From positions 1 through 46,729 of the IMG/VR virus record IMGVR_UViG_3300017761_003339: 46,729 bases of DNA, one strand, 5' to 3'. Position 1 is the first letter of the stretch, and the number at the start of each line of letters is the position of its first letter. The DNA is from a virus. Its lineage: Duplodnaviria; Caudoviricetes. The position numbers and the translations under genes were made by a program. Below the pieces are notes generated by a model, which ran no database searches, had not been told where the DNA came from, and saw only the letters and a list, made by a program, of their open reading frames with translations. Positions 1,555 to 41,482 of the stretch are shown here, piece by piece.

Positions 1555-2391
1555 TTAATATACTCGATACAGATTGAAAAGGTCCGTGTGTATTGTATTT
1601 GCCGGGTTTGTGGTTATCCACTGCGCATTCACTTGCAGAGTAGTACTAATCGTAGTACTAAATGTTGTATTGTTTTGACTAAAGAAGCCAACACTCTCTG
1701 GAGCATTACTAGCGTCCTTATTGAAGAAGAACGTCCCCGCAGTAGCAATTGATGCCGTTCCCGCAGATCCAATGACCCTAATTGTAAACGTAATGTACAG
1801 CTCCCAGTTTTTATTGGTTGTCGAAGGAAGCGTTATAGTTCCACTTGATGCTAAAGTTACAGCCCCTGCTATTATCGTTATTGATATCTGCTCGTTATTG
1901 GCAGATGACATTTGGCCAGAGAAGAACGCATTGAAAGAGTCACCAACTTGAAATCCATTTGCAGGGATAGTCAGAGTTCCCACACCACCATCAATCAAAC
2001 TTCCAGAGGTGGTTACGGGTACGCTCTGCTGTGTCTGTGAGTAAAGTCCGCCTGCGTGTAGGGTATTGATTGTTACGTTTCCTGTTCCTTCTACTGGGCT
2101 TAGGCTTATATTGGTGCCTGCTATTATCTTATTGACAATTGCTTGATTTTCCCACTGTCCTGTGGCACTATTGTAGACTAATCCGTTTTTATTGGCAACG
2201 CTAGTTAAGGTAACGTCTGTTAGTCCATTTAGATCTGAGGCCCCAAGCGTAATATTTCTTAAATTCTGTACAATAACCCGTAGTCGTGTAGCCTTATCTT
2301 TTTCTGATTGGTCACGGGTTTTACTATAGATTTTGTCCGCCTCACTTGCAGATTTTAATAATTGGGATGCTATATTATCTAATTCTGCCAT
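1555..2391 (-). CDS. Fibre/spike-like structural protein
   Basis: Contains LNGLTDV...LVYNSATGQWEN and IIAGTNISLSP..GTGNVTI fibre-shaft motifs, then a Thr/Gly-rich beta domain. Confidence 0.6.
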   Translation of the reverse strand: MAELDNIASQLLKSASEADKIYSKTRDQSEKDKATRLRVIVQNLRNITLGASDLNGLTDVTLTSVANKNGLVYNSATGQWENQAIVNKIIAGTNISLSPVEGTGNVTINTLHAGGLYSQTQQSVPVTTSGSLIDGGVGTLTIPANGFQVGDSFNAFFSGQMSSANNEQISITIIAGAVTLASSGTITLPSTTNKNWELYITFTIRVIGSAGTASIATAGTFFFNKDASNAPESVGFFSQNNTTFSTTISTTLQVNAQWITTNPANTIHTDLFNLYRVY

Positions 2392-3023
2392 TAAAGACTC
2401 TTTAACATCTCAATCATTTTCGGATGAGGGTATATGTCAGTTTTATCTTTGCGGCAAGAGTTATGAGTGTAGACACCTTTTTCACCTTTCAAACATCTAG
2501 GAGTAATACCCCAAATGTCTTCATTATAGGTAAGGGGAATATTATATTTCTCTTTCCACAACAAGAGCAATTCCTTTACTGCTTGGATCTGAGCGTCTGT
2601 GTAATTGTGAAAGAACTTAAATCCTTTGTATGGTTTATCTAAAGTGCAAACTTGATCGGCTGGAACTACCTTATTTACGTAGTTATAAAACTTACCATCC
2701 TTTTGCGTAAGTTGTCCCCAATTGCAGATTTCAATTCCAATACTTGTCTTATCCAAACTTTTATATGGAACTCCATTAGCAGTAAATACAGAAGTCTTAA
2801 GTCCCAAATGATATGCCCAAAACTTTGAACTAAACCCTTGTACCACTTCGCCATCAGCACTAATAGATACACAAGTCGCAATCTTATCGGGGTTTGAGGC
2901 CCAACCTTGAAATACAATGTGAGCGTTAGGGCCACCAGCAGTGTGATGCAAGAAGATTTGATCCTTAGGATGTTCTTCTGCAAAATATTGGGTCTTAGGG
3001 AAGTCAATTTGAGTCAGTTTCAT
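2391..3023 (-). CDS. N-acetylmuramoyl-L-alanine amidase (Amidase_2-type endolysin)
   Basis: IFLHHTAG, WAYHLG, SIGIEIC, THNS..KDKTD Zn-amidase motifs. Confidence 0.9.
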   Translation of the reverse strand: MKLTQIDFPKTQYFAEEHPKDQIFLHHTAGGPNAHIVFQGWASNPDKIATCVSISADGEVVQGFSSKFWAYHLGLKTSVFTANGVPYKSLDKTSIGIEICNWGQLTQKDGKFYNYVNKVVPADQVCTLDKPYKGFKFFHNYTDAQIQAVKELLLLWKEKYNIPLTYNEDIWGITPRCLKGEKGVYTHNSCRKDKTDIYPHPKMIEMLKSL

Positions 3024-3033
3024 TAGTTATTTC

Positions 3034-4017
3034 TTACAAGCCTACAGAATTTAAGAAGAAAGTATTTGTTGCAATACAAGTGATTTTAAATACACGACCT
3101 CTTTGTGCACTAGGAGTTATTGTAGTGCTTGGTGCAATTGTCTGAGCCAAACCAGCATTATTTACATAGTAAACTGTTACTGAAGAATCGGCAGCAATAG
3201 CCACACTCTGAGCAGTATTACAGAAAACAGTTGTTGTAAAACCAGCAGCAAAGGCCGGGTTATTAGGACATACAATAGTCACTATACCAGATGCGTGAGT
3301 AACCAATAAGAAAGCATCGGCATCAGCACTTGTCAAAGGACGTAAACCAGAACTTGCGATTGCAGTCTGAACCTTTGTTTTCACCTCTACACTACCAGAC
3401 AAACGAGCGTCTGGAATAGTACCTGAGCCCAAATTACTTGCATTTAAAGCGGTCAAGTTGACACCACTTACAGCAGGCAACTGGGTAGATCCGTTCAATT
3501 GAACCAACTGAGACGCACCATTGAATGTGTTTCCTTGAACAGTAACTTGCGAACTTAAACGAGCATCTGCTAAAGTTCCACTTGCAATGTTTGTTGCATT
3601 CAAAGCAGTTAAGTTAACCCCGCTTATAGCAGGCAACTGAGTACTAGAATTCATCTGTACCAATTGAGACGCACCGTTAAAGGTATTACCTTGAACTGTA
3701 ACTTGAGAACTCAAACGAGCATCGGCTAGAGTTCCGCTAGCAATATTAGAAGCGTTCAAAGTAGTCACCAATAGACCACTAACAGCAGGCAATTGTGTGC
3801 TAGCATTTAACTGAACCAGTTGACTGACCCCGTTAAAAGTGTTACCTTGTGTAGTAATATTTCCAGCTGCAACAACAGCAGTTGTTAAATTCGTAACCGT
3901 TACTTGTTTAGTAGTACCAGCACTAGTGTCTGAAATATCTACGATGGGAAGTAAGTCACCCGAAGCCACCGAACTCAACGAGTCCAATTCACTTATTCTT
4001 TTTTCTTGAAATGCCAT
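3034..4017 (-). CDS. Tail fibre protein with three 52-aa repeats
   Basis: Start MAFQEKRISEL is coupled to the upstream stop (TAATG); repeats QGNTFNG.SQLVQ.N.STQLPA.SG...LNA.N..SGT..DARLS. Confidence 0.75.
   Translation of the reverse strand: MAFQEKRISELDSLSSVASGDLLPIVDISDTSAGTTKQVTVTNLTTAVVAAGNITTQGNTFNGVSQLVQLNASTQLPAVSGLLVTTLNASNIASGTLADARLSSQVTVQGNTFNGASQLVQMNSSTQLPAISGVNLTALNATNIASGTLADARLSSQVTVQGNTFNGASQLVQLNGSTQLPAVSGVNLTALNASNLGSGTIPDARLSGSVEVKTKVQTAIASSGLRPLTSADADAFLLVTHASGIVTIVCPNNPAFAAGFTTTVFCNTAQSVAIAADSSVTVYYVNNAGLAQTIAPSTTITPSAQRGRVFKITCIATNTFFLNSVGL
3397..3858 (-). repeat. Three 156-bp tandem coding repeats
   Basis: QGNTFNG codons recur at a 156-nt period (about 3850, 3694, 3538). 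Confidence 0.85.
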
Positions 4018-4403
4018 TATAATATTATTTGATATCCGTTTTGTTGTAATAACCAAACTCCATTCTGTGTAAGAATGTAGCCGCCTAGTTGATTTTTGTA
4101 AGCCATTTCTTTTGCAAAAGGTGTTACCTTAAAGGCATCAATTTCTGCTTGACTAACAGAACAATCTCCACAATTTCTTGCAAACCTATTTACGACAGAG
4201 ATAAATTTATCAATGTCTTCGTTATAACATTGGACATTCTCCATGCACCAAAGTAAGAATAAACCTTTTGTCTGCAAAGTTTCATAGTTGCAACAAGGCC
4301 TATCATATTTTTGTGCAGCCGATATACTTTTTTCAGTATTGACAATCGCCTTGCGAAGTGCCAAGTAAGAACTGTAAAAACTATATAAATTTACGTATGT
4401 CAT
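4017..4403 (-). CDS. Cys-containing tail hub/adaptor-like structural protein
   Basis: TAATG-coupled at both ends; RPCC and CGDC motifs; C-terminal YILTQNG..LLQQNG..IIL. Confidence 0.55.
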   Translation of the reverse strand: MTYVNLYSFYSSYLALRKAIVNTEKSISAAQKYDRPCCNYETLQTKGLFLLWCMENVQCYNEDIDKFISVVNRFARNCGDCSVSQAEIDAFKVTPFAKEMAYKNQLGGYILTQNGVWLLQQNGYQIIL

Positions 4404-4987: not shown

Positions 4988-4991
4988 ATAT

Positions 4992-4999: not shown

Positions 5000-5009
5000 C
5001 GAAATATTT

Positions 5010-8000
5010 CTAAGGAATCAAACCTTGAGAATTTGCCAAACCTACAGCAATCAATTTTTGTTGCATTTGCTCTGTAATAAGACCTCTTTTTTGCATATCT
5101 CTTAAATATTTTCTTTCGGAATCATTGCGATAATACTGAAGATGAGTTTTGATTGCTTCCAATTGATCTTGCTCGAAACGATTGAAAAGATTTACAATTT
5201 CTTCTTGGGCTTTTTCATCATTATCTTGCTCAATATAACTAGCAAGTACGGGTTTCAACCTTGCGATATCCTCACCATATTTTCTCAAACTAGTGCGCAT
5301 AACCTCACCCCTAATTTTTAACTCTTCTCTATACAAATCGTTAGGTAATTCGTATTCAAAATAATTAGGAGAATTTGGTTTATCATCAGCTCCCGTAGTG
5401 ATATCCATTTCCCAACGGAATTTATTTTTCATTGGGTTTGAGATAACTTGATACATACCGCTTGTTTTACCATTCCATTTCCACTCGTAATCTCTGCCTG
5501 TCATTTGTTGATACATCATAGCAAGATCCATAAGACCACTATTTACTTTCATAGCATCAACATAAGTCAATTTTTCTTTATCTGCATCTTTAGGAGAAAG
5601 AGAATACTTGCGAAGCGCAAATGGATCAAATACGGCTTGAAAATAAGCACCAGCAGTTCCGGGGTCAGCCAAGGTTACTTTATATTGTAAATCTTCGCCA
5701 AATGGGCCTATTGCAGCCTTATAGAACTCGTTTCTAGTATCTTCATTAAAAGATATATTTCGATTCAAACGCTGTACAGTTTTAATTACTACTGGTCCCC
5801 AAGCGGCTGGCCAACTATTATCTTCTCTAAATTTTGAAATTTCACTTGCACTCTGTACTATTTCAGCGTTTCCTTTTGACATAAAGGAGAAGAAAGAAGG
5901 GAAGAAAACTGACATAGATGTACTTAAAGTTCCAGATGCAAAATTCTCCCAAGCCTTAGCACTTGTATCGGGGTTTTTCAAATCGTTTGTCAGAGCCCCA
6001 ACACGAGCTAAACCTTGGAACATCGGAAGATTTTCAATACCATTACTCAAAGTACTCTGAATCAAAAATCCTAAACCATTCTTTTGATCGTCAAGAAGTT
6101 GACCCATACCATTTTCTCTTTTAGCACGACCTTGTTCATAAACACTACCATACAAATTCATTGCGTATCCAAGGAAACCAGCATTATTGGTGTTAAGAAT
6201 TTTATCACCATTCTTAGCAAAACCGCCTCTACGAGTAATAAAATTATCTGTGCCCATTTGCTTACCCCAATCTTGACCAAATGTTTTTCCTACGTTATTC
6301 AAAAGAGTCATTCCATTGGCTTTCATATACTCAGCGTGCAAAGTAGCATTGTACAAACCACCACGCAATTGTATGTTTTTCAATGATTTATCTTTTTCCA
6401 TATCGCCTCCGATTAGAATGGCTCCTGCTTTAACAGCAGACATTGCAAAACCATAGATTGCCCAACTTGTTATCATCTGAGCAGCATCATAGGTTGCTTG
6501 TCTTTTAGCAGCAAACAAATCAATTTTAGCCAATTCGTAATCCTTTCTTTGCTTTTCGTTATTTAATTTTTTACCTATCTTATAATTTTTGTTAAATTGT
6601 TTGAATTTATATTGGTAAATACCTTCAGAAATCAAATATTTAGGACTTGCGATTGCAGGAACTGTCTTAGCGATTGCAGTACCCAAGAAGTTAACAGGTA
6701 CTTTTGTAAATGGCATCAATGTCCAAAGTGCTACATCACCGACTTGTAAAAGGTTCTTACTCATTCCACCTACAGTAAATTGCCTTTTTATTTCTGAGCC
6801 CAATCCTGTACCCGGAGTTTGAGCACGATTGGTTGAATACAAATCTCTTACTTTCTTTCTGATTGCACCACGCCCTGCGGAAATGGCTCCAGAAATTATG
6901 TTGTCTCCCAACAAAGTACGTTTTAAACCTTCTCTTTCGAAAGCAGCATACATTTCTCCATTGTTATAAAGAATAGCGCTCATAGCACGAATTACATCCT
7001 CATCTAGTTTACCATCTGCTTTTTTGAACATACCATCGAATATACCATCTTGGAATCTTGTGCCTTGAATGTTTTGGAAGTAGTCTATCATCGACCTTTG
7101 AGCAGCCATTTGACCAAAGGAAATATCACCTCCATATGCCATAACACGTCCGGTAAATTCAGCAGCGGCAGGTCCAAAGGATGCTAATAGCATTGAAGGA
7201 TTTCCACTAGCAATAGCACTAACAGGCCCAAGACCAAAACTCCACGCCAAACTACGAGCCAAAGTATATTCTTTTCCGTCACGCAATTCTATAGTGCCAT
7301 TTTTGAGTTTGGTGAGTGTTAAATCCAATGCATCAGCTTGCTCTTCCATCGTCATATCAGACAATGATTTACCTGTGCTCTTGTTCACCCAAACATCCAT
7401 AAACTTAAATGCCCATTGAGGATCTTTGAAGAAGTTAACTTGACCTAAGTTGTCATAATAACGATCCAATCCTTTGTTGGTATTCAATACACCATACTTA
7501 AAGTTGTTACTTTCAATATAAGAATATCTTGCTTTTGACAAATTTCTAGCCATTTTCCAATTGTCAAAACTTAAAGTATTACCCTTAATTCCTTTGCCGA
7601 ATTGATCACGCAATTTTTGTATTGACCTAGCAGCAAAGTTAGTGCTCCATATATTATTTTCTATGTTGGCTACATAACTTAAAACAGCAGTACTGACATT
7701 TAACAAAGCACGGCTACCACCAGAAGTAATTCTCTCGTTCCAGAAAATTGGCTTTCTAGCCTCTAAGAACTGAGCAACACGGATAGTTGCATCTCCTACT
7801 GCTTTCTCAGACTTCCAATAGTTATCAAACGCTTGGTCTGACCAATCGGTTTCTAATGCAGAAAGAAAGTTGCTATTTAATTTTTGAGAGTTTTTATAAT
7901 CATTGACAAGTGCAGTCAATGTTTCTTTTTGTTTTGGAGTAAGTATAACTCCGTTGTTTTCTAGCGTTTTTTCAATTGCTTTCTGAGTCCCAATCTGATT

Positions 8001-11000
8001 AAAGAAACGAGCCATCTGTAATATGCGACCTGCTTGGCTGAATAACTCAGATGATACTTGGAAAGCGTAAACAATAGATTCGGGAGTATACAAGTTATCA
8101 CCAATCTTACCAGAACGAACTTGGTCTGCCCAATCTAATCCTTTATCTATCAAATCTTTATCTTGTCCAAATCTTTTAACACCTTGTGTCAAAGCAATGG
8201 CGATTTGGTCAAAGCCCTGTTCTTTCAAATACTGAAGGAACATATCCATTGTAACTGCACTATCTACAAGTCCTAATCCTGTTTCACGCAATACGTTAGC
8301 AACATCAGCAGCCTTTTGTTCAACCTTTAAGTTTTTAGCATCTTCTTCTAACTCATTCAAGAAATCGCTTGGGTATTCTTTATCTCTATCCAAAGCATTC
8401 TGAACGGTTTTACGATAGTCAGCACCAAAAATATCAATCAAATCTTCATTGCTCAAAAAGTCCATGTCTGTGACAGCCTTAAAAATCTCCAAAGGACTGA
8501 AATCTTGTGCAATTAAATTCTCATAAATAGAATCAATTGCTGATGGGTCAATACTTATCTGACGAGTAATTTCTACTTGACGATCACTAAATGCTGTATT
8601 AACCTTATTCATTGTTTCAACAGCAATATTGGCTTGTGCTTGCTTAAAAGCATTCTCATCAAAAAGAGAAGTACCCAATACCTCTTTGATTCTCTTTGGT
8701 GTATATCCTTTGTTAATCAAAGCCGTAAAACTAGAAACTTTATTGTTTCTGCTTTGTTGCATAGCTTGAGAAAAGTCTAAAGCAATGTTGCTGTAATTTA
8801 ATTGACCCTTATTTATAAAGCCTTCGAATATAGGTTTTAATGTTGTTTGAGTATAAGAATTAGGATTCTCTGCATCTAACAAAGTAATAAACGGATCGAG
8901 GAAAATTATTTGACCCTTTGGAGTAAAAAATACATTTCCATTGTGCAAATCATCAATTAAAATACCACCTTCAAAATTTTCAGCGGTAACTTCCATGTCA
9001 TTTTTTAGAATGCGTTTTTTAGATATTTTCGCTGGCCAAGTAATTCTTTCTTGCAAAGCATCACGTAATTTTTCTTGGTCTGCTAGATTAGTTTGTTCAA
9101 TACCTACTATTCCGTGAAACATACGTTGTTTTAAAATAATACGCAATGTTGGTTCGGAATTTAAAAGTCGAGCAAGACCAATCGGAGTTTCTTTTCCTTG
9201 CCTCACATCATCACTAAAACCGAGTATTTCATATGCTGTTTCAGGAAAAATGGTATTGTAAGTCATTATCCTTCTCATCAAACTCAAATAGTTTATACCA
9301 TTGAGAGGTAATGTTGCTTTGTATGTATACTTAGAAGTTTTACTCAGCCATACTCTAGATTCTTCGCCTGCTGCAATTTCATACATCGGAGGAAAAATGT
9401 TCTCTAATTTATTTAGATAAACATTATTCTCTTTGGCAAATTCTCTTAAGAGGTCTTCATCTTTTCCTTCGGTGTCGAAGTCATTTGATTCACCAAAGAA
9501 ATCCCAGGAGTTATCTTTAAAAAGTTTTGCAAGCTGATTGATGGCTGCTTCTCCCACTCTTCCAAAAGTTTCTTTGTTACCTCCGAGGGGGATGGATTCT
9601 TCTTCTGTCCATCCAAGTCTGTGGATGTCTCTTGCATTTCCGTTTTCATCTACTAATATTGGTTTTTTTAATTGTGACTTATTTATAAAATCAGAGTCTG
9701 ATATCTTACTTACTACTGCTCCACTTGGACCAAAAGAATTGTCTTTTGTAACCAAAGCCTTAGGGCCAAGTATATCTTGAAGATACTCAACTAGTTCATT
9801 GCCATCAAATCCTTTTTGATATGCACCATTGCTTATTTCATAACTCTTTGATTCTGGACCTTTCTTTCCTCCTTTTGTTGGTTCAATATCGTTCTTCCAC
9901 TTGCGTGAACTGATTACTGCCTTACCGCCATCATTCAACTTATCAAATACATCTAAAACAATAGCATCACGAATGTCCTTAGGAACTGCGTTTACTACGT
10001 TTAATAATACAACACCATCATACTTCTTATTGATTTGATCTGAGCCCGTAAATGTAGGTTTTTGTTTACCTTGCCATCTTTGTGGGTTTGGTTCATACGA
10101 ATCAATATTACGCCCCAAAGTATTTGCAATGGCATCTGTTCCGAGACCCAAGCCTGCACCATAATCTAAAACATCACCCGTCATATCTTTAAGCAAATTG
10201 GCGGCTTTCACATAAGAACCAACTGTATTTGGACGCTGAGTTGTCACACTAGCCGCTTCAGAACGAATCTTTTGAGATTTGTTTAAGAACTCATCAACTT
10301 GAGCCGGAGATGCTACGTCTTCTTGACTTTCTTGGGGAGTGACTTGAGATTCTGTTTGGGGTTTTCCTTCGACCACTTCTTCGCCAACGCTGGCTTCTGA
10401 CTGTACAGGAACTTCATTTGTGCTTTGCTCTTGAACGGCATTTGTTTTTAGTTTTAATTTTTCGGAAACTTTTCCTGTCGCTAATGTTTCTGACAAGGCA
10501 TTCATATAATCAATAAATCCTTCACGAGTTCTAATACTCTCGAACAATTGAATTTTACCATTGGTGTTTCTTGCGATAAAATCTGAAAACACCCTAGCAA
10601 TTTTTTCTATAGAGCTTAATTTTAAAGTCTTTCCTTCCTCGGCTAAAGTTGATCCAAGTTCAACAGTGAACTCTTCGCCTTTTTGACTATTTCTATAACC
10701 ACTTACCAAAGCATTGATTGAGGCTAAACCTTTTTCACCTAGTGTTTTTCGTGTTACAGCAAGTAAATCATTTTTCATTTGTTCAAACAACTTTGAATCT
10801 GAGCCCAAAGTATTCAACAAAAGCAAGTGAGAAACCTCGTGGCCTATAGTTGTATTGGTGGCAGCATCCATATTGATTTGGATTTCTGACTGAAATTTAC
10901 CAGTCTTCTCATCATATTTAAGAGAAATGTTTCCGGCTTTGTTTTCAGCCGTGCCCATTTGTTTCATCGATTGAGAAAATTCCTCTTGGTTCATCATAAT

Positions 11001-14000
11001 GATGTTTACCCCTGGCGTTACTTCATCCAATACACCTTGTAATCTTTGAGCATCACTTATAAGTTTATCAGCGTTCTGTTGACCAGCCGCTCTTGCTTTA
11101 TCTGCAATTTGATTTAACTTCTGTTCGTCTTTAATTGTAGCACCCAAAGAAGTTGCCGCTGTTTGCGCTGTTGTGACTATCTGAGGCCCTTGGGCAACTA
11201 AAGCGGTATCTTCTTGAGTTGCTCGGTCTTTAGCTTGTTTAATGGCGTTATTTATGCTTGCGTCTTGACTCTCGATTTTGATTTTATCGTCAATAACAGC
11301 ATTTACAAAATTACCATCTGTCATAGAAGTCAACAAATCATTGTTATCAACTACGATACTAAAATTATCATTGAATGTAATTTTGGTGTAATCTAAATTT
11401 TTACCTGTTGCAACATCAGTGAGTTTTTTATCGATTCCTTTTATTTGAGCATCGATTAAAATTTTTGTATTCTCATTTGTTTCTTTATTCGCAAGTTCTT
11501 GTAATCTTGCTTTTTTAACGGCCAAACTCACATAGTATTTTTGATGGTCTCTATTGCTGATTAGTTCTTTTGCGGCCGGGAATGTTTTAATTACCTCGCT
11601 GAAAGATTTTTTCATATCTTTCAGTTCGTTGATGTCTATCATTCCTTTTGCATACAAGTATTCTGGTAATACATTTACTCCTTTTTCTCCTAGTACTTGA
11701 ATTGCATCTGTAACCATTTGAGATAAACCAGCATCCTTAAGTTTTGCAAGGACACGATTTTTGCTCTGATCTATTTGCTTTTCACGAATTGATTCCATAA
11801 TCGAACTACCACCACTTAATACTGCTACTGTTGGTAAAATATTAATTGCAGTCGATAATCCATTTTCTGAGACCCAAGAACTGAAATCAGTTGGATTATC
11901 AGTGCTATATTTATAGTTAAGGTAACCTTGTGGAATTTCTTGAAAAACTTCTTGAAGCTCCTCAACTAACGTGGATACTCCAATTTTACGAGCAACTCCT
12001 CCAATACCATAACCTTTGGCAATTTTGCTAAGAAATCCTTTTGTGAAAGGCATCATTTCGAAAGCATACGTAGGAGAAATTAAAATTTGAGTTCTCAAAC
12101 TTTCAGCCGCAGCATTTTCTGCTTCAAAAATAGAACCTGTACGCCTAAAAGCATTTCTATAATTTTCACCGGTTTGATTCCAAGTATCTTGAGCAAAACC
12201 AATTGCTCCGCCAATAAACGGATTGCCCGTCAAAACAGTTGTTGCAATTGGCACAGCCATATTGACACCTTGCATTGATAAGTTTTGTACAACATTTTTT
12301 AATGCCTCTACACTTAACAAACCTTCTGTTTTTAATATCTGATCAAAAGGTCTAATGTATACTTGATTGGAATTTTCTACCAACTCTAAGTGTTTTAACA
12401 AACCTGTTAATGGATTGTCTTCATAACCAACAGCAGCACTTAATGAAGTAATAGCATTTCCAAATTGGTTTGCTGCTGTTCCAACAATTATATCTCCCAC
12501 TCTCCATCCAATGCTGTTGCTATTTTTTACTTCTTCTACGGAATAATCGCCATACGCTTTTTGATATGCATCACGATATTTTCTATACGCTGCTGTAGTC
12601 AATTGATTTTTTTCATTGACATCTTTTGCAATACCATATTTTTTTTGAATGGCTTCTAAATCTTTTTTAGATTCATTTTCAACTTGTATAAAAAATTCAG
12701 ATGCTTTTTTCTCAGCCTCTTTTTTTAATAAATCTGCCGTTTCCTCTAAAATAGTATTTTCTTGACTAACTAAATCAACATAACTCTTATATGCTTGATC
12801 ACGTTGATCTTGACTCAAATTCGGATTAGATTGTACAATGCTCAAATAAGAATCATAAGCACTTTTTGTTTTATTTTCTGATGTGCTCTTAAGCGAAGAA
12901 AATGCTTGTTCAAATTGACCTGCAAGTTCTCGGTCAAAATTATTCTTAACTTTTTCTGTATTGGCTACTAAAGACTTAATATCATTTTCCGCATTTATAT
13001 CTGCCCTTTTTACATCTTCTGCAAATACATCAACTTCGCCAAGTTTCTTTTCAACAATAGATTGAATCAAAGTTTCTTCGGCTTTTGCCTTTACCATACG
13101 GAGCAAACGAGGTTTAACCATTTGAGCAACCTCTTCTTTGCTCATATTCAATTTTTTAGCTGTCTCATCGTTTATCGGACCAAAAGTAGAATTTAAATAT
13201 TCATCTACTTTGTTCTCAACATAAACAGGATTGATTTTTGGATTGTTAGCATCGTCTAACATTAAAACACCAAAGTCATAAGACAACTTACGATTGGGAT
13301 TAAGTTCTCCGTCTATTGTAGCTGGGTTGTCAAAAAAGTTGGCTGGCATATTAGAACCAAAACTTTTTAAAAGACGATTGGCATCTGGTAAAAGCGTTTG
13401 GTCAAGTCTTTTTTCAGATTCTCCCATTCCTTGCTCTACCATCATTTCAGTTTCTGTAGAACTAGCAATGTTTAAATCATCATAATTCTGCTTGCCTCTT
13501 ACATAATTTTCAATCGCATCTTGCTGTTCTGAAATTGGTTTTGGCTTATCGGCCTCAGCTAATCTTTCAGTTATACTTTGTTGTTTGAAAGGTGCTCCTT
13601 CTTGTTTTGGCGCAAGCGCAGGAAATTCTTTCTTTTGTATTTTGGGTTTTACTACTAGGCCAGCATCATTAACATCAACATCATATTTTTTATTAAGTTG
13701 CTTGACCATAGTATTCAAATCCTCATCGACATCAGGATTCTTTTGGAGTTGCTTATATACCTCTACAAAGTTTTTAACTTTTTGCGCAACTACAGGAATA
13801 TTGATTGCAGGTTGCTCTGTTAAGGCAAATATCTCACGATAAAGATTTTGATACTGTGTTGATAATGGACCACCGAAAGGTTCTCTTCCAGTTGATTTGA
13901 TGAGTGATGATGGCTTTGGGCCTTCAGTTGAAGGAACTGCTGCACTTGGTGCATTACCCAAAGTTATTGCTACTTGACCATCGCTAGGTGGTGCTACATC

Positions 14001-30491: not shown

Positions 30492-31097
30492 ATGGGTTTT
30501 AAAAATGGAATGGGTAGTAAAATCTACCTTACAATTCGGGAGGGCAAAATTGCCCACAAACAAGGAGATGCTTATGTTTTGTATGATTCTTTCGAGGGTC
30601 AAATCGTAGGTATTAGCACACGTGAAGGTAAGTACGGCACAGATTTGTGTTTAGACTTATTAGACAATGACAAGGTGTATCAATTGCAAATTAAAATGAA
30701 AGGCGAAGAGCCTACTAGTAAGCAGACTTCTTACTTCATTGCTTTTGCACATTGTTGCCCTGGTATTGACCCTAGCAAAAAGGTTGAGTTTATTCCTTCT
30801 TTGAAGATTGTTGAAGACAAGAAAAGGTCGGCTTTGTTTATCAAGCAGAACGGACAAATTCTTAAGTGGTCTTTTAAAGTAGGTCAAGATGGTGTTCCTG
30901 CACCAGAGGAATTGAAGAACAAAAAGGGGGAAGTGATTTCTACTGATTGGTCAGAAGTTGAAGCGTATCGAGTTGACAGAGTAAATGAGTTTACTAAAAA
31001 GGTAATTCCTTTTGAGCCTGTACACGATATTGTTGCTGATCATGCAATGAATCCTTACGTAGAGTCTTCTCAAGACGATGATGATCTTCCTTTCTGA
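30492..31097 (+). CDS. Single-stranded DNA-binding protein-like
   Basis: Acidic C-terminus DDDDLPF; adjacent to an exonuclease gene. Confidence 0.65.
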   Translation: MGFKNGMGSKIYLTIREGKIAHKQGDAYVLYDSFEGQIVGISTREGKYGTDLCLDLLDNDKVYQLQIKMKGEEPTSKQTSYFIAFAHCCPGIDPSKKVEFIPSLKIVEDKKRSALFIKQNGQILKWSFKVGQDGVPAPEELKNKKGEVISTDWSEVEAYRVDRVNEFTKKVIPFEPVHDIVADHAMNPYVESSQDDDDLPF

Positions 31098-31336
31098 TGC
31101 CACGTGGTGTAAATAATACAAAATTGGCCGAGAAAATTGGAACTAAAGTTGAACCTGCTCATATGAAACATTATGGGCAGGAACAAAAGGCTATAATTCG
31201 GCAGTCTTCGTTAAAAAGTGCCGTTTCTTTGGTTGAGTCCATTGTTCCAAGATTGCAAGTCGATTTCACGGTTACAGATATTCGTAACCTTACTTTGGAA
31301 ACTGCTGAGTTGTTCGAAGAATGGGTCTTGAGATAA
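31097..31336 (+). CDS. Hypothetical protein (IIRQSSLK.A motif)
   Basis: TGATG-coupled to the upstream gene; the motif is recalled from SSB/recombination-linked phage proteins. Confidence 0.55.
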   Translation: MPRGVNNTKLAEKIGTKVEPAHMKHYGQEQKAIIRQSSLKSAVSLVESIVPRLQVDFTVTDIRNLTLETAELFEEWVLR

Positions 31337-32304
31337 TTCAAATCAATAAGGATAAGAGCTACGATGAATGGATTCAGTTCCGTACTCGTGGGCTTGGGGC
31401 CTCAGAGATTGGTACTCTTATGGGTGTCAACTCTTGGAAATCTCCTGCTGAATTATACTATCAGAAGATAGGATTAATTCCACAGAAGGTAGATCAGAAC
31501 ATTCCTATGTTTATGGGAACTATCTTGGAAAAGACTGTTGCTGAGATATTCGAGTATTGGGATGGTGATGATGCATCTATGTTGAAGAACTATGAAAGCG
31601 AAACTAAAGTACGTACTTTGTACGAGCCGGTTGGGTATGTGGTTAATCCACAGTATCCTCATCTTTTTTTCTCGCCTGACAGATTACAAATCAAAACAAA
31701 AAACTTAAGAATAAGAGATGGTAGAATTAACTTGGAAAATGTGGAAGCTGTTATTGAGATTAAAACGATTAGTGGATGGAGTAGCAAGCAGTGGGAGGGC
31801 GGTATTCCACCGTCTTATTACTTGCAGCTGCAAACCTACTTAATGGGTCTCGGAATAGATACTGGCTACTTGGTCGCTCTAGAAGATGGAAGAAACTTAA
31901 AGGTTCACAAATTCGATAGGGATCAAGAAATGATAGATATGATTGGTAGAGTAACAGCAGACTTCTGGTCATGTGTAGAAGCAGGTCGCCTTGCTTTAGA
32001 ACTAGGAGAGGACTACGAGCAATATGCTCCACCACCAGATGGCACGGAAGCCTACTCGGAGTTTTTAAATAAGAAGTTCGCCAATCCCGAAGAAAATACT
32101 ATTGTGTCTACACCAGAGATAGATGAGTGTATACTCCAGTACAAGGTGAAAAACTCAGAGATGTCTATTCTAGATGACGAGAAGAGGGAAGCAGCTAATT
32201 TCATTAAGAACTATATGGGTAACAATACGACTATACAATCCGAGGAAGGTAAAGTAACTTGGAGACCCAATGCTAAAGGAACTAGAATTTTCAGAGTTGG
32301 ATGA
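31321..32304 (+). CDS. YqaJ-like (lambda-exonuclease family) recombination nuclease
   Basis: W...R..GLGASE, G..LE, SPD, EIKT, YYLQLQ.Y. Confidence 0.9.
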   Translation: MGLEIIQINKDKSYDEWIQFRTRGLGASEIGTLMGVNSWKSPAELYYQKIGLIPQKVDQNIPMFMGTILEKTVAEIFEYWDGDDASMLKNYESETKVRTLYEPVGYVVNPQYPHLFFSPDRLQIKTKNLRIRDGRINLENVEAVIEIKTISGWSSKQWEGGIPPSYYLQLQTYLMGLGIDTGYLVALEDGRNLKVHKFDRDQEMIDMIGRVTADFWSCVEAGRLALELGEDYEQYAPPPDGTEAYSEFLNKKFANPEENTIVSTPEIDECILQYKVKNSEMSILDDEKREAANFIKNYMGNNTTIQSEEGKVTWRPNAKGTRIFRVG

Positions 32305-32585
32305 AAACAAAGGATATCGAATGGTATCAGGCTATGTGGGAGTCACGTCCACACAAATGCCAGGAATGTGGTTTACATCTACCACACTTCAGTCCGATGT
32401 ACATCTCGCATATCATAACAAAAGGAAGTTATCCGAGTCTGAGGAATCATCCCGAAAACTTTATGATCTATTGTTCGCAATGTCATCAATTATGGGAATT
32501 TGGGAAGAGGACGATGATGAAGACTTATGAAGAAGCGATGGAGATAATGAATCGCCTTAAAAGAGAGTATCATGAATCACGGTAG
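32301..32585 (+). CDS. HNH-like zinc-finger nuclease
   Basis: CQECG...SHI.....YP.LR....N....CSQCH. Confidence 0.7.
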   Translation: MKTKDIEWYQAMWESRPHKCQECGLHLPHFSPMYISHIITKGSYPSLRNHPENFMIYCSQCHQLWEFGKRTMMKTYEEAMEIMNRLKREYHESR

Positions 32586-33708
32586 TTTATTTAGTGGAAT
32601 AGGTGGATTTGATTTAGCAGCCGAGTGGATGGGTTGGGACAATAAGTTCCATTGCGACATCAACCCCTTTAGTAGAAAATTATGTAGTTTTTATTGGCCC
32701 AAGGCCGAATCTTATGAAGATATCAAGACAACTGACTTTAGAATTTGGAGAGGAAAAATCGATGTCCTCTCCGGTGGTTTCCCCTGCCAGCCATTTTCCC
32801 ACGCTGGAAAAAGGATGGGAAAAGAAGACGAACGCCATCTTTGGCCCTATATGCTCCAAGCAATCAAAGACATTAGACCAAGATATGTCGTGGGGGAGAA
32901 TGTTCGTGGAATCCTTAGTTGGTCGGAGGGATTGGTTCTCGAAGAGGTCTACGCTGATTTGGAAGGTGAGGGATACGAAGTCCAAACGTTTGTACTTCCA
33001 GCTGTCGGCATCAACGCTCCACACAAACGGGACAGAGTCTGGATTATTGCTAAAGACACCAGCAGCGATGGATGCATACAGCGAGAACCTATCGAAGAAG
33101 GAACAGGTATTCGGGAACTCTGGGACACTAGCACAGGAGGTAGCAACGGGATTCATTTACAAGAGGGGACTGATACCAACACCACAAGCATCGGACTACA
33201 TAGACAAGAACACGAGCAAGAGTTGGGAATCAAAAGGGGGAATCAATTTCAGTTTGGGAAATCCGAAAATAAGAGAAACGCTACCGACACCAATAGCCGG
33301 GGATTGGAAGGGTCAATTGAGATCGGACGGAACAGCGAATATGTTGAGCGGAAAAGCGACATTGGGATTACTGCCGACACCGAACGCTTGCGATTGGAAC
33401 TCGGCCAAGATGCCACAGACTTACATCGCCTCAGTTCTCAGACACAAGGAGAAAGGAGTCAATCAGCAGTTAACATTACGCCAGATGACAATGTTCATTC
33501 CGAACAAGGTGGACCATCCGAAATTTGGGACGGCTTCCCAATTAAATCCCCACTTTGTTGGGGAGATGATGGGCTTCCCACTGAATTGGACGGACTTGCC
33601 CTTCCTAAGTGGAGAAAAGAAAGTATAATGGGCTATGGTAATGCCATTGTTCCACAAATTGCTTACCGTATATTTGCAACCATAGATGAAATCGAAAATA
33701 GAAGCTAA
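32572..33708 (+). CDS. DNA (cytosine-5) methyltransferase, catalytic (alpha) chain
   Basis: SLFSGIGG, GGFPCQPFS, GENVRG, PHKRDRVW, GYGNAIVPQ. Confidence 0.9.
   Translation: MNHGSLFSGIGGFDLAAEWMGWDNKFHCDINPFSRKLCSFYWPKAESYEDIKTTDFRIWRGKIDVLSGGFPCQPFSHAGKRMGKEDERHLWPYMLQAIKDIRPRYVVGENVRGILSWSEGLVLEEVYADLEGEGYEVQTFVLPAVGINAPHKRDRVWIIAKDTSSDGCIQREPIEEGTGIRELWDTSTGGSNGIHLQEGTDTNTTSIGLHRQEHEQELGIKRGNQFQFGKSENKRNATDTNSRGLEGSIEIGRNSEYVERKSDIGITADTERLRLELGQDATDLHRLSSQTQGERSQSAVNITPDDNVHSEQGGPSEIWDGFPIKSPLCWGDDGLPTELDGLALPKWRKESIMGYGNAIVPQIAYRIFATIDEIENRS
32714..33628 (+). CDS. Overlapping-frame methyltransferase partner (beta) chain with target-recognition-like repeats and motif IX
   Basis: 304-aa ORF nested in the methyltransferase gene; four L[PK]TP.A.D repeats; LNPHFVGEMMGFP. 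True start may be at 32762. Confidence 0.75.
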   Translation: MKISRQLTLEFGEEKSMSSPVVSPASHFPTLEKGWEKKTNAIFGPICSKQSKTLDQDMSWGRMFVESLVGRRDWFSKRSTLIWKVRDTKSKRLYFQLSASTLHTNGTESGLLLKTPAAMDAYSENLSKKEQVFGNSGTLAQEVATGFIYKRGLIPTPQASDYIDKNTSKSWESKGGINFSLGNPKIRETLPTPIAGDWKGQLRSDGTANMLSGKATLGLLPTPNACDWNSAKMPQTYIASVLRHKEKGVNQQLTLRQMTMFIPNKVDHPKFGTASQLNPHFVGEMMGFPLNWTDLPFLSGEKKV

Positions 33709-33949
33709 GCAGTACTTGAGGTATATGAAGACTTTTTTATGGGCTAATAAAAAGACTATAGAAGAACTGAGCGAGGTATCTGCTAAAAGCGTTATGGTAG
33801 ACTACCCAGTAGATGCCACGAATTTAGAAGACGCTATTAATTTCATAGAAACGGGAGAGGGCCTCAGAGAAACACAAATCTCCAAGACTGATCTATACGC
33901 TATGATGGAATCAATGAAACATAAAAAAGAAGAAATAAAAAAACCATGA
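33686..33949 (+). CDS. Hypothetical protein
   Basis: 87-aa ORF overlapping both neighbours. Confidence 0.55.
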   Translation: MKSKIEAKQYLRYMKTFLWANKKTIEELSEVSAKSVMVDYPVDATNLEDAINFIETGEGLRETQISKTDLYAMMESMKHKKEEIKKP

Positions 33950-34325: not shown

Positions 34326-34414
34326 ATATGCGCCTACTTTTTATACGATGCGCCTATTTTTCTTACACTAGTGGCAAATGTTTGCACAAAGTAGTGAAAA
34401 GTAATACCTATTGC

Positions 34415-34712
34415 AAAAAATATACCCCCTGGTATAATACCGCTCGGTAAAAATATACCCCCCCCCTATTGATATCAAGAGTAAATATTCCCCCTCGGTA
34501 AAAAATAGCCCCCCTACCTTATATATAGCAGAGACAAAAAGTACTCCTAAAAAATATAGTTTATGCTTGGTGTGGAGGTAATATGTACAAAAAAGTCGGC
34601 TGATGGCGTAAAAAAAACACCCCCCCTATCTTGCTTCGCAAGATAGAACCTAAATCGTGGGGCATCGGGCTTAATTCCCGAAGGGAATTAAATCGCAAAA
34701 AAAATCCCCTTT
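34415..34712. repeat. A-tract/C-tract repeats and two perfect triloop hairpins
   Basis: AAAAATATACCCCC-like units (about 6); CTATCTTGC-TTC-GCAAGATAG at 34626-34646; TTAATTCCC-GAA-GGGAATTAA at 34671-34691. Confidence 0.75.
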
Positions 34713-34714
34713 GG

Positions 34715-35000
34715 CGTACACGCTCGCTCGAGTGTGTACGCTTGCACGCTTGCACGCACGCATTCGCCTACGCACACACGCTCGCCCAGGATCGCACGCA
34801 TACACGCACACGCATAGAGCTTTCGATTCACATTTCAAAATTTATTTGTTATTTAGAACCATTCTAAATTTCATCGAATATTTTTTTCTTTGCTTCGCTT
34901 CGCTTACATTACGCCCAAGCATAACGCTTGCACACACGCTCACGCATACGCTTGCGTACGCACGCAAACGGTTTTTCTTTCATATTTCCAAATTTATTTT
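34715..35000. repeat. Two imperfect copies of a (CACG/CGCA)-rich tract plus an AT-rich tail
   Basis: ACGCTTGCAC.CACGC...TCA.ATTTC.AAATTTATTT occurs twice. Confidence 0.7.
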
Positions 35001-35070
35001 CGTGAATTTAACATTGATTTTTTTGATATTTGTTTAAACGAACATTGAACCGATAAAATTATTTTCATTT

Positions 35071-35219
35071 TGTAACTTATTGAATTTCAACAACTTAAGA
35101 TTTTTTTTTAACTTTTTTTAACATTTATAATGATTCTAAATAAGATAGTTAATTCATTGATAATCAACAACTTACATTTATCAATTTTGTTGTAACTCAT
35201 TGATAATCAACAACTTACA
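35071..35219. repeat. Three copies of the imperfect palindrome TGTAACTCATTGATAATCAACAACTTACA
   Basis: Copies at 35071-35097, 35150-35176 and 35191-35219; copies 2 and 3 contain the IHF consensus WATCAANNNNTTR on both strands. Confidence 0.8.
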
Positions 35220-35611
35220 TCGATTTTTTTATTCCGATTATTACCCCAATCTTTGTAATGTCGAAACAACATAACGACAACACGAAACAGACATACACAA
35301 ACGATAAACACACACACAAAAAAACACTTTTTGCTTGCATAAGTAATTTATTACACACAGCAAAAAGTTATCTGTCTACTTTACTGGACAGTGCCATCTA
35401 ATCGGGCAGTGGAAGAACTATGCCCTTTGTGAGACCTAACCCTACATAGTGGGCTGGCGAGCCTCTCGTGACCAAGTCAATGAGGCGTATGTAAGTTCTT
35501 GGAGAGAAAACCGAGGGCGTGTAAGTCAAGGGATTAAACCCTCGCAATCATACTACTTAGGTTCAACCGCCCCTTAAGGGTGAGAAACCGAAAAAATAAG
35601 GTGCACTCAAA

Positions 35612-35678
35612 CTATCGATGCCATCCGTAGCCTTTGACCTATGGGGTGCAGTCTGTCGTGTCAGACCATCGGTAGCCA
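35612..35678 (+). ncRNA. tRNA-like leader element 1
   Basis: CTATCGATG/CATCGGTAG stem abutting the GTCTG-loop-CAGAC arm, followed by CCA; 11 nt before the ATG. Confidence 0.45.
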
Positions 35679-36082: not shown

Positions 36083-36104
36083 TTAAATAGTAAATCTATT
36101 ATCT

Positions 36105-36139
36105 GAGCCCCATTCACAAGATGGGGTTTTTCTTTTTTT
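36105..36139 (+). terminator. Intrinsic terminator
   Basis: GAGCCCCAT...ATGGGGTTT followed by a T run. Confidence 0.7.
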
Positions 36140-37444: not shown

Positions 37445-37455
37445 TCTGAGACCCT

Positions 37456-37683: not shown

Positions 37684-37690
37684 AAAAAAT

Positions 37691-38410: not shown

Positions 38411-38411
38411 T

Positions 38412-38693: not shown

Positions 38694-38950
38694 TAAACCT
38701 ATCTAAAACACAAGTCTCTTGGGACTCGCAAGTAATCGCATTCCAATGGTATCAGAACATCGGTGATGCCCTCTCTCACTTTGCTCACTTCTCTTCTTTC
38801 TTATCTGAGACCCAAAGAGAAGAAGCACTACAATTAATTGATTCCTATACAAAAAATTGGCGAACTAAACACGAAGACCTTATCATCCTCGAAAAAAATG
38901 TAATCATTGCACCAATCAAATCAGACAAACCAACAATAGCAAAAGTATGA
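38690..38950 (+). CDS. Hypothetical protein
   Basis: ATGA-coupled ORF. Confidence 0.6.
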   Translation: MINLSKTQVSWDSQVIAFQWYQNIGDALSHFAHFSSFLSETQREEALQLIDSYTKNWRTKHEDLIILEKNVIIAPIKSDKPTIAKV

Positions 38951-39138
38951 ACACAGAAGAATTTTACCAATGGGTAGTCAACATAATGGGAGCATTCCCT
39001 ACAGATGCTGACAAGAGAAACCAAATCAAAGAACTTTACTACTTAGCCCTCAGCGAAATCGAAGAGGGTGGATCCGAACGAAACGAAATTGACCACGCAG
39101 TAAATGACATCAATTCACTCATCAACGAAAACTTATGA
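38947..39138 (+). CDS. Hypothetical protein
   Basis: ATGA-coupled 63-aa ORF. Confidence 0.6.
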   Translation: MNTEEFYQWVVNIMGAFPTDADKRNQIKELYYLALSEIEEGGSERNEIDHAVNDINSLINENL

Positions 39139-39356
39139 CCTACCTAAAATTAACTAGAGTACACCTTACTATACAAGGCGAACTAAAAGAAGATTACTTG
39201 TATGTAAATCCTCAGCACATCAGAGTATTCAGCGAACACTATGAAGATAACTTTGAAATGTTTGTAACTGCAATCAGTTGGGCTCATCCACAATACATGG
39301 AAATCTATGTAAAAGAAACACCTTACCAAATAGAACAACAACTAACCCTATCATGA
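39135..39356 (+). CDS. FlbD-like small beta protein (paralog 1)
   Basis: LKLT...YVNPQHI...VKETPYQI. Confidence 0.55.
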   Translation: MTYLKLTRVHLTIQGELKEDYLYVNPQHIRVFSEHYEDNFEMFVTAISWAHPQYMEIYVKETPYQIEQQLTLS

Positions 39357-39568
39357 AACTAATCAAACTAACCTTCGCAGACAGAAAAGAATTTGTCTAT
39401 ATTAACCCTAATCACATTGGTCATTGCTATCGAGTACCCTACACAGACACAAAATATAGTAAACCAATCGAAGAGCATACAAGAGTTGGAGTAACCACAC
39501 ACAATAACGGGGGCTTTGAAGTAATGGAAACGCCCGAACAAATCATCAAACTAATAGATAAACTATGA
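39353..39568 (+). CDS. FlbD-like small beta protein (paralog 2)
   Basis: Start corrected to MKLIKLTF; YINPNHI...VMETPEQI. Confidence 0.55.
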   Translation: MKLIKLTFADRKEFVYINPNHIGHCYRVPYTDTKYSKPIEEHTRVGVTTHNNGGFEVMETPEQIIKLIDKL

Positions 39569-40224
39569 GACAACTTAATGTATTAATCGCTTGCGAGTTC
39601 AGTGGTACTGTTCGCAATGCCTTCCGTAAACTTGGTCACAATGCTTTCTCTTGTGACCTTGAGCCATCAGATGACGATTCGCCTTACCATTACAGAGGTG
39701 ATGTGCGTAATTTACTAACAGCATACCAATGGGACTTGCTCATCGCTCACCCACCATGTACCTACCTTACCTTGGCTGGAAATAGATGGTTCAAGCCCGA
39801 ATACGCTGAGAGATTCCCTACTCGTATTCAAGACAGACAAGATGGTGTTGACTTCTTTATGGAACTTATGAACGCTAACATACCACACATATGTGTAGAG
39901 AATCCTATTGGGGTTATGTCCTCTATCTTTCGTAAGCCCGACCAAATCATTCAACCTTGGCAGTTCGGAGACCCATTCCAAAAGTCTACTTGCCTATGGT
40001 TAAAAGATCTGCCTTCACTCATCAGTACCAATATCGTTGACAAAGGTGAATTCTTTGAATGGACTGATAAGAAAACCGGCAAGGTTAAACGCCAAGCACA
40101 ATGGTATATGGATGCCTTGAAAGGTAAGACTGCATACGAACGACAGAAAATTCGTAACAAGACCTTCCAAGGTATAGCCGATGCCATAGCCGACCAATAC
40201 TCAACATACATTTTAACAAAATAA
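39565..40224 (+). CDS. Short phage DNA cytosine methyltransferase-like protein
   Basis: VLIACEFSG, IAHPPCT, VENP, K.TCLWL, R.KTF.GIA. Confidence 0.75.
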   Translation: MRQLNVLIACEFSGTVRNAFRKLGHNAFSCDLEPSDDDSPYHYRGDVRNLLTAYQWDLLIAHPPCTYLTLAGNRWFKPEYAERFPTRIQDRQDGVDFFMELMNANIPHICVENPIGVMSSIFRKPDQIIQPWQFGDPFQKSTCLWLKDLPSLISTNIVDKGEFFEWTDKKTGKVKRQAQWYMDALKGKTAYERQKIRNKTFQGIADAIADQYSTYILTK

Positions 40225-40257
40225 TTTCTAATTATACTAAAATATAAAATTAAATAC

Positions 40258-40265
40258 TATCTTTG
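40258..40265 (+). promoter_or_regulatory. Bacteroidota -7 element (TATCTTTG)
   Basis: TAnnTTTG-CA in an AT-rich intergenic gap. Confidence 0.65.
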
Positions 40266-40288
40266 CACACACTAACAACATAATAGAT

Positions 40289-40543
40289 ATGAACAAAAAA
40301 CAAGCAATCGCAATTATCAAGAGTAACAAATTCTTCTCAGCCGAATTCACTAAGAAAGACGGCACAATCAGATTCATCACCGCCAGGGCCGGTGTAAAGA
40401 AAGGTCTCAAGCCCGATGCTAAACCCAAAAGTTACAACGCAAGTGAATTGGGTTATGCAACTGTATGGGACTTAAAAGAAAAGAACTATCGCCTTATCAA
40501 TCTTCAAACATTAATCAGAGTTAACAAACAAATCGTAAAATGA
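40289..40543 (+). CDS. SH3-fold (WYL_2/DUF2693-like) protein
   Basis: F.KKDG..R...R, VWD.....YR. Confidence 0.65.
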   Translation: MNKKQAIAIIKSNKFFSAEFTKKDGTIRFITARAGVKKGLKPDAKPKSYNASELGYATVWDLKEKNYRLINLQTLIRVNKQIVK

Positions 40544-40782
40544 TAAAGACATTCAAAATTGGTGAATCTGCCGTAGGTGGTATCATCAAAGTTCAAAAGA
40601 TCATCAGTAAGAAAGCTCTTCGTGATGACACTTACAACATCAAGATTATTGATTGGGATACTAAAGAAGTTATTCTTTGGAGATTCACATATGGTATCCA
40701 AGAAACTTACGAATACTTATCCCAATACACTACCCACTATTGGGCAGAAACTATTGTATCATACTTTAAAAACAAAAAATAA
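40540..40782 (+). CDS. Hypothetical protein
   Basis: FKIGE.AVGGII motif; ATGA coupling. Confidence 0.6.
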   Translation: MIKTFKIGESAVGGIIKVQKIISKKALRDDTYNIKIIDWDTKEVILWRFTYGIQETYEYLSQYTTHYWAETIVSYFKNKK

Positions 40783-40786
40783 GACT

Positions 40787-41482
40787 ATGCCAAACCATGT
40801 TTATTACCACTTCATCCCTGCTGAATTAACCGCAGAGCAGACAGAAAAACTACACACAATTGCCGAGACTCTTAATGGATTCTGTGGTCACTACCGCCCA
40901 ATGCCCGATGATATGCGTGACACGACATCTCCTTGTCGTGTTGTGACTCAGAAGGAGTACGACAAACAAATAAAGGAGAACGAGAAGATCGATCGGACTC
41001 AGCCTTGGTATCACGAACCTAAGCCCATCACCAAGAAGATGCAGAAAGCATTGATTGAGAAGTATGGCACAGACAATTGGTACGATTGGGCTTACAACAA
41101 TTGGGGTACTAAGTGGGGATGTTATGACCACGACATTGACGGTGGTAACCTACGCTTCTCTACCGCTTGGAATCTATTCGATATCTCTCTGCTTACAGAG
41201 ATAGCAGTTGACTTCCCTACATTCGTCTTAGCCTATGAAGAAGAGCAAGGATGGGGTGGTGAGTTTGTATTCGAAGATGGCGAATGTATTGAACGCACAG
41301 AATACGATGCACCTACATGGCACTCTACTGATATCGAAACAGAAGATGGAACTATCACGCAACTGCTGTTCCCAATATCTGAGACCCATTTCAATGAGGG
41401 GGCTGACGAAGGTTACTACTATGACTATGACACCAACCAGCCCGTACCCGAAAGTTTCTTAACACAATATAACTTAAACTAA
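40787..41482 (+). CDS. DUF1281/YubB ferredoxin-like fold protein
   Basis: Start corrected to MPNHV; WYDW...NWGTKW, F.TAW, YEEE. Confidence 0.75.
   Translation: MPNHVYYHFIPAELTAEQTEKLHTIAETLNGFCGHYRPMPDDMRDTTSPCRVVTQKEYDKQIKENEKIDRTQPWYHEPKPITKKMQKALIEKYGTDNWYDWAYNNWGTKWGCYDHDIDGGNLRFSTAWNLFDISLLTEIAVDFPTFVLAYEEEQGWGGEFVFEDGECIERTEYDAPTWHSTDIETEDGTITQLLFPISETHFNEGADEGYYYDYDTNQPVPESFLTQYNLN

Follow-up and report, generated by a model that had tools for sequence, protein, structure and literature searches.

A family-wide polar DNA word, Chi-like in layout, in the genomes of crAss-like freshwater phages

The stretch of DNA analysed here (the window) comprises the 46 729 nt of IMG/VR record IMGVR_UViG_3300017761_003339 and is part of the genome of a crAss-like freshwater phage. 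It encodes a portal protein (phrog_6547), a Crassvirus muzzle protein (PF25731), a 3093-aa virion-region protein, a YqaJ exonuclease, three methyltransferases and a serine recombinase, and the metagenomes that contain its DNA are mostly of freshwater origin. The late genes run leftward up to 30.4 kb and are followed by a short rightward operon (30.5–34.2 kb) encoding a likely single-stranded DNA-binding protein (SSB), a 79-aa protein, YqaJ, an HNH protein and a methyltransferase; beyond a non-coding gap lie the rightward early and replication genes (Table 1). Near-complete relatives measure 63–72 kb and additionally carry a primase-helicase, a DNA polymerase, a ribonucleotide reductase and a likely terminase. 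No close cultured relative was found, as the major capsid protein returned no match and the best portal match reached 21 % identity. The nearest cultured portal (21 %) and primase (30–35 %) belong to Flavobacterium phages and phage PJN03 and, taken with the crAss-like parts, they suggest a Bacteroidota host. Scattered through this DNA is a 10-mer, TCTGAGNCCC, which forms the subject of this report.

A first-pass annotation, made from the sequence alone, had listed 12 exact copies of TCTGAGNCCC together with TCTGAGCCC and TCCGAGACCC variants, and all of these were present where it had placed them, with nine exact copies on the plus strand and three on the minus strand; its GC content of ~35 % is corrected here to 37.2 %. 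Ten of the 12 copies lie inside open reading frames (ORFs), in several frames and in both coding senses, while two are intergenic. Dinucleotide shuffles of the window returned a mean of 0.19 copies (maximum 3, 100 shuffles). Shuffling of synonymous codons with the proteins kept intact, the control that the annotation had called for, left the enrichment in place (mean 0.19 per gene and 0.13 per region; maxima 2 and 3; 1000 shuffles each), corresponding to a 60–90-fold excess over the codon nulls. Among 23 016 gapped 9-letter words tested, the word ranked first (p 3e-20). These codon-preserving nulls lead us to reject a codon or amino-acid artefact as its source: the word is a real, selected and direction-bearing DNA site.

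Table 1. Copies of the word and selected features of the window (positions in nt)
Feature	Position	Strand	Remarks
Exact copy	2234..2243	+	antisense within late gene
Exact copy	7982..7991	+	within 3093-aa gene
Exact copy	11180..11189	+	within 3093-aa gene
Exact copy	11866..11875	+	within 3093-aa gene
Exact copy	22016..22025	+	homologous site retained by many relatives
Exact copy	28354..28363	-	within portal gene, zone of mixed orientation
Exact copy	31397..31406	-	within YqaJ gene; site also present in 17 related loci
Exact copy	33859..33868	-	nearest exact copy left of gap
Exact copy	36102..36111	+	intergenic, nearest exact copy right of gap, within terminator-like hairpin
Exact copy	37445..37454	+	between stop codon and start codon
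Exact copy	38804..38813	+	
Exact copy	41378..41387	+	
Variant copies	6793, 10039, 10140, 10798, 14134, 16939, 27004, 39965, 43466, 45000	+	
Variant copies	13550, 31845, 37910, 40994	-	
Non-coding gap	34400..35650	.	relatives retain its A-tract/C-tract elements; free of motif copies; orientation reverses from one side to the other
crAss-like portal	26909..29110	-	phrog_6547; marker for collecting family
201-aa protein, likely OB-fold SSB with acidic tail	30492..31097	+	18/18 records
79-aa core protein between SSB and exonuclease	31097..31336	+	18/18 records
YqaJ/RecE-like (lambda-Exo family) exonuclease, candidate reader	31321..32304	+	phrog_434, PF09588; 18/18 records
Serine recombinase, rival reader	44501..45181	+	catalytic and recombinase domains only, R-V-S intact; 17/18 records
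3093-aa protein	5010..14291	-	Pfam PF18762 polyvalent-protein kinase above cut-off; weak methyltransferase domain
DNA methyltransferases (three)	32572..33708, 39565..40224, 43236..43859		common in clade 1
Stand-alone DnaA C-terminal helix-turn-helix protein	45168..45527	+	PF08299 above cut-off; mostly clade 1

The word is a property of the family. A first scan with the portal returned it in 43/43 loci (143 exact copies vs 1.8 expected, the loci being related and not independent), and each of the 18 family records examined showed enrichment, the most distant at 52 % portal identity. Whole clade-1 records (n=8) carry 6–21 copies each and none of the reversed control. In the sister clade (52–58 % portal identity), where the consensus is shifted toward TCTGAGNCCCC and TCTGANNCCCC, the word was present in 17 of 20 loci and at 3–18 copies in each of the ten whole records. 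Individual sites turn over, with few inherited and most private (287 sites reduce to 201 once homologous ones are collapsed). As the motif types track the portal tree, covariation cannot single out one reader. Three cultured phages and ten loci with distant primase or portal homologues held 0–1 exact copies each. When viral contigs were scanned for pairs of copies no more than 30 bp apart, 45 loci were returned, none of them from this family, and the scan thus had no power to find unrelated phages that share the word; L090 and L105, considered as such sharers, were both rejected as local repeats. Two further candidates for dispersed words in the sister genomes, AACCNAAGG and TTAGGTNTGC, were set aside as mostly repeats within one early gene.

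Pooling six genomes, the exact word was found 80 times against 0.93 expected. Changes at positions 4, 5, 6, 8 or 9 abolished the enrichment (0–5 copies each), those at positions 1, 3 and 10 had graded effects and position 7 was free, defining a GAGNCC core. After correction for codon phase, the clade-1 consensus reads TCTGAGACCCAAnCnnAW with a weak A/T preference at position 24, and the site holds ~17 bits of information, an approximate value given that the core was fixed by the query. We found no recurrent inverted or direct partner within 50 bp (201 and 204 collapsed sites).

By location, 187 of the 287 sites are antisense, 76 are sense and 24 fall outside single ORFs, with non-coding DNA amounting to 7 %. 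This argues against stoperator-like repressor operators, for which the two intergenic copies in the window could otherwise speak, as does an orientation that is not tied to transcription. The methyltransferase genes and the DnaA C-terminal gene of the window might suggest a methylation target or a bound regulator. Among nine sister-clade records, however, the three methyltransferases and the HNH gene were found in none and the DnaA C-terminal protein in one, so these proteins are not family-wide readers. With a by-product of codon or mutation bias opposed by the enrichment over the codon nulls, this whole group of explanations is largely refuted and we regard it as very improbable.

Orientation was counted with the looser CBGAGNCCS in nine clade-1 records. 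The late genes hold 137 plus and 27 minus sites where the codon null gives 3.0 and 3.6, and coding therefore does not explain the polarity. The operon left of the gap is reversed (3+/32-), the first 5 kb right of the gap are again mostly plus (32+/9-) and the gap itself is empty. With homologous sites collapsed, left and right flanks still differ in clade 1 (1+/16- vs 25+/8-, p 2e-6) and in the sister clade (3+/12- vs 17+/3-, p 2e-4), so the orientation is not random in relatives. Since both flanks are transcribed rightward, transcription does not set the flip. For the two blocks that flank the gap, the observed ratios did not differ from an amino-acid-preserving null (p 0.26 and 0.31); that null is itself tilted by the selected sites, which makes the late-gene block the clean test against coding. 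A mere echo of GC skew was rejected, as blocks of equal skew (+0.139) differ in orientation (3+/32- vs 10+/6-). On either side of the gap the word faces away from it, and the return to plus orientation takes place in and around the portal gene, 5–7.5 kb left of the gap. The first-pass annotation had proposed both the independence from coding strand and the flip, and these are borne out. Its further statement that copies are reversed only at 28–34 kb holds for exact copies and fails for CBGAGNCCS, which is also reversed at 13550, 37910 and 40994; complete relatives, moreover, show a mixed zone in replication genes outside the window.

Density is highest close to the gap, with 8.4–10.7 sites per 10 kb in three of the four adjacent 2.5-kb bins (4.9 in the fourth) and 2–7.5 in most late-gene bins. 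The plus sites of the late block are spaced more evenly than chance (coefficient of variation 0.76 vs 0.92, p 0.0065, 12 related genomes), at a mean of 1.4–2.9 kb. Sparseness, even spacing and polarity within genes are the properties for which an enzyme that travels along DNA would select. The gap may be a physical genome end or a replication terminus: the A/C tract within it was reached by 16 of the 57 contigs examined, and 8 of these 16 stop within 0.6 kb of the tract. Between 34400 and 35300, repeated A-tract/C-tract elements follow a G-rich box and are kept in several relatives; ACGC-rich repeats and an AT-rich stretch come next. In the complete relative G001, a tail-spike-like gene has been inserted immediately to the left of the gap and lies on the opposite strand (L049:6280–8241, -).

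PMC8022716 describes Chi as over-represented and replichore-polar on the host chromosome. We searched 747 distinct Bacteroidota genomes (401 from the phylum, 151 from one order, 251 from another and 2 from one family) and found no Chi-like enrichment, no density near the phage level and no skewed, enriched chromosomal word, although the true host may lie outside the sample. The host Chi and the KOPS-like cue put forward in the first-pass annotation are thus not seen in these genomes. Several outliers were rejected as hosts. The signal of G148 (54 copies vs 5) is a repeat, in which a single variant accounts for 48 of the 54 and many copies lie at contig ends; the strands are interleaved in G028 and G102 (54 vs 14 and 48 vs 19) and in G049 (104 vs 32); and the enrichment of three further ratio outliers disappeared with a longer word. 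G028 and G102, which belong to the same small Bacteroidota family, carry TCTGAGNCCS at 2.5–4-fold above the reversed control, without polarity. The Bacteroidota promoter word was not enriched (7 vs 4.3), and at E 1e-40 none of the 401 genomes yielded the phage serine recombinase. Consequently, we do not class the word as a host Chi, as the sampled chromosomes lack the enrichment and polarity of one.

Even so, the layout resembles that of a Chi-rich phage. According to excerpts of PMC12315714 and PMC3784561, Chi-type words in LLS (E. coli), MD8 (P. aeruginosa), P1 and T5 are likewise the top over-represented word, strongly polar and present about once per 2 kb (one per 1.9 kb in P1; 20 vs 3 by strand in LLS, PMC12315714), and phages without annealases form the Chi-rich class (PMC3784561); the supplementary tables of both papers might list further members. 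As in those phages, the word is denser near the presumed end and the PHROGs assignments for 102 proteins of G001 and G416, 58 of the window and 31 of G002 include no annealase, though a novel one is possible. An ordinary host Chi of AddAB/RecBCD, enriched by an annealase-lacking phage, would account for this density, polarity and gene content. On the 3′ side of the G-rich reading there is also a preference for A at distances of 5 and 7 bases (p about 0.002–0.004, uncorrected), a weak hint that may recall the E. coli Chi flank, where A/G is preferred 4–7 bases 3′ of the site (PMC5041463, in part). Unlike the words of Chi-rich phages, however, this one is unrelated to known Chi sites, longer and graded, was found neither enriched nor polar in the sampled host-phylum genomes, drifts with phage lineage and points inward on both sides of the gap in a phage that encodes an exonuclease and a likely SSB. 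Because the host may fall outside the sample and E. coli Chi is itself only about 2.3-fold enriched in its host (PMC3784561, in part), the genome search lowers the standing of a host Chi without removing it; we hold it to be unlikely. A literature search on crAss-like or Bacteroidota Chi-type motifs, in which the motif letters were not a search term, returned nothing relevant, only general AddAB/Chi papers.

Motif drift with phage lineage and the absence of enrichment from the 747 genomes point to a phage reader, possibly an enzyme of the phage's own, and the polarity, density scale and lack of a recognised annealase shared with Chi-rich phages count for a Chi-like function. Our preferred reading is that the word acts as a brake, in the manner of Chi, on the resection of DNA ends and that its reader is a phage enzyme, perhaps the core YqaJ exonuclease; we give it a probability of roughly 0.3. 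That the word works like Chi in some form, with phage reader and host AddAB taken together, has about even odds, AddAB as the reader being the less probable part. In the proposed mechanism, each step of which is conjectural, the gap would be a genome end or a place where forks end. A 5′-to-3′ exonuclease entering from either side would meet TCTGAGNCCC on the digested strand and halt within 1–3 kb, leaving SSB-coated 3′ tails as substrates for recombination dependent on host RecA, for the restart of replication and for the formation of concatemers. Over the late genes, where the bias runs one way, the signal would act on breaks at forks that move leftward. For an enzyme of the RecBCD type, the approach to the G-rich reading would be from the 3′ side, as it is for Chi.

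The gene content of the family is compatible with such a reader. YqaJ, the SSB-like protein and the 79-aa and 137-aa proteins were present in 18/18 records, and, among near-complete records, the polymerase and a 606-aa protein in 12/12 and the primase-helicase in 11/12. The confident model of the 201-aa putative SSB (predicted local distance difference test score 80.8) returned OB folds as its best Foldseek matches, none of them significant (E 0.012–0.02). The phage resembles lambda in possessing a lambda-Exo-family enzyme, and the pause of lambda Exo at GGCGA is strand- and sequence-specific and has been speculated to slow digestion from one genome end (PMC7496540, in part). Unlike that weak 5-nt pause at one end, the word described here is selected genome-wide, and YqaJ is only a candidate reader.

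Several observations weigh against a brake read by YqaJ. The layout is lopsided, with a reversed block of only the last 5–7 kb and the other ~60 kb facing mostly one way, which also gives no support to the symmetric protection of both ends suggested by the first-pass annotation. Further right of the gap, orientation is mixed (18+/13- in the next 5 kb, 10+/6- beyond). The higher density near the gap could stem from weaker protein constraint there, and the contig stops in the gap are scattered over 0.6 kb and do not share one base. With codon phase corrected for, base preferences are still present at positions 14, 17, 18 and 24 and extend the footprint to 18–24 bp, which is rather much for a pausing nuclease and closer to what a double-strand DNA-binding protein covers. 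A set of 161 mosaic breakpoints from 115 non-redundant sequences showed no excess within 300 bp of sites, which argues against precise site-specific exchange (the test has low power at the kilobase scale). Lagging-strand priming predicts the same polarity. Finally, we know of no lambda-Exo-family enzyme with a 17-bit stop signal.

Priming would involve a T7-gp4-like primase-helicase for which the G-rich strand is the lagging-strand template, with sites stocked at Okazaki spacing; forks would travel leftward through most of the genome but rightward through the last 5–7 kb. The even ~2-kb spacing and the primase-helicase of the near-complete records agree with this proposal, as does base composition: measured on the sense strand at fourfold sites, GC skew is about -0.43 immediately right of the gap and about -0.03 to -0.25 in late genes, which fits a leading minus strand in both late and early genes. 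Primases usually read 3–5 nt, so a word of this length counts against the proposal, as do the free position 7 and the preferences reaching position 24. The NrS-1 primase-polymerase, a phage enzyme that recognises a single-strand word of unusual length, serves as a precedent (8 nt; PMC8718748, in part). Unlike the Toprim/DnaB-type primase-helicase of this family, the NrS-1 protein is an AEP enzyme, and its preferred site is the shorter GTG. The cultured phages and distant-homologue loci mentioned above, besides their 0–1 exact copies, showed no comparably strong dispersed word. We consider a priming site doubtful.

The long footprint keeps the core serine recombinase in play. The word could be its binding or crossover site and might serve, for instance, in circularising terminally redundant DNA, or in joining it into concatemers, at any site within the redundancy. 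The enzyme ends before the zinc ribbon of large integrases, and the sole record lacking it is partial. A recombinase domain covers about 13 bp (PMC3783163, in part), and the A/T preference at positions 11–12 and 17–18 would be symmetric about positions 14/15. This symmetry is only weak, however, and no inverted second half-site lies within 50 bp. The absence of a breakpoint excess tells against crossover at the sites, allelic exchange needs no polarity, the recombinase domain of LI integrase reads only 3 bp directly (same excerpts) and 21 loci with distant serine recombinases held no exact copy. We therefore judge this explanation quite unlikely. A truncated serine recombinase as a core gene of an apparently lytic crAss-like family is an observation in its own right; forms of 220–250 aa are widespread in viruses, and a metagenome scan for further short recombinases returned only distant, mostly full-length enzymes.

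The word might also be a programmed nick or a packaging or ejection mark on virion DNA. It resembles the nick consensus of Pseudomonas phage tf, T5 and phiKMV in being a degenerate, asymmetric word of 9–10 bp at ~14 copies per 46 kb; tf carries 14 copies of a 9-mer per 46 kb, all nicked (PMC3517423, in part). A likely large terminase is available as a core protein, this being our assignment for the 606-aa protein on the basis of Walker-like (by eye) and nuclease-like motifs; it is encoded far from the portal gene (G002, 56771–58591; L053:16771–18591, -), had no library match and gave a poor structure model. Unlike the sites of tf, which lie on one strand and are demonstrably nicked, those described here are known from sequence and switch orientation by block: about 90 % are opposite in the last 5 kb and 16–22 % of those in the late block and the first early block are reversed. 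The sister clade retains the word, yet the small HNH gene was not found there. A nick or packaging mark thus appears quite improbable.

Returning to a Chi-like brake, a broader form can tentatively be proposed, in which the phage has a Chi system of its own: a DNA-tracking enzyme (the YqaJ module or the primase-helicase) would read a 10–12 bp word that marks phage and not host DNA, with word and reader drifting together. If true, it would amount to a code by which phage DNA ends are recognised as self, one that works without RecBCD/AddAB and perhaps spares phage DNA during degradation of host DNA. Were a host enzyme the reader, the word would be a first Chi candidate for a Bacteroidota lineage. 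In either case the polar signal is real and family-wide: a polar word of 17 bits is maintained throughout the family despite a heavy cost to coding, without sign of it in sampled host-phylum genomes, and the core candidate readers form a short list (exonuclease module, primase-helicase, truncated serine recombinase and terminase). To our knowledge, the well-studied polar words of phage genomes are all host Chi sites or nick sites of unknown purpose.

A few minor observations complete the picture. In the 3093-aa protein, a conserved DxDxD polymerase motif was not found across relatives. A contig junction at 38800–38829 overlaps the 38804 site in two sequencing runs, the systematic breakpoint test being negative. 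Unrelated viral contigs carry strongly repeated palindromic words of their own, GGGCCC-based in L090 and GTCGTNACGAC in L321. A search of genome contigs matched phage contigs in a Sphingomonadaceae metagenome-assembled genome (G007) and, weakly, one Chitinophagaceae sequence. The word-rich short contigs of G007 (C18, C22, C34, C40, C41 and C45), at least two of which carry the family portal, are probably misbinned phage DNA, with the motif serving as a family tag.

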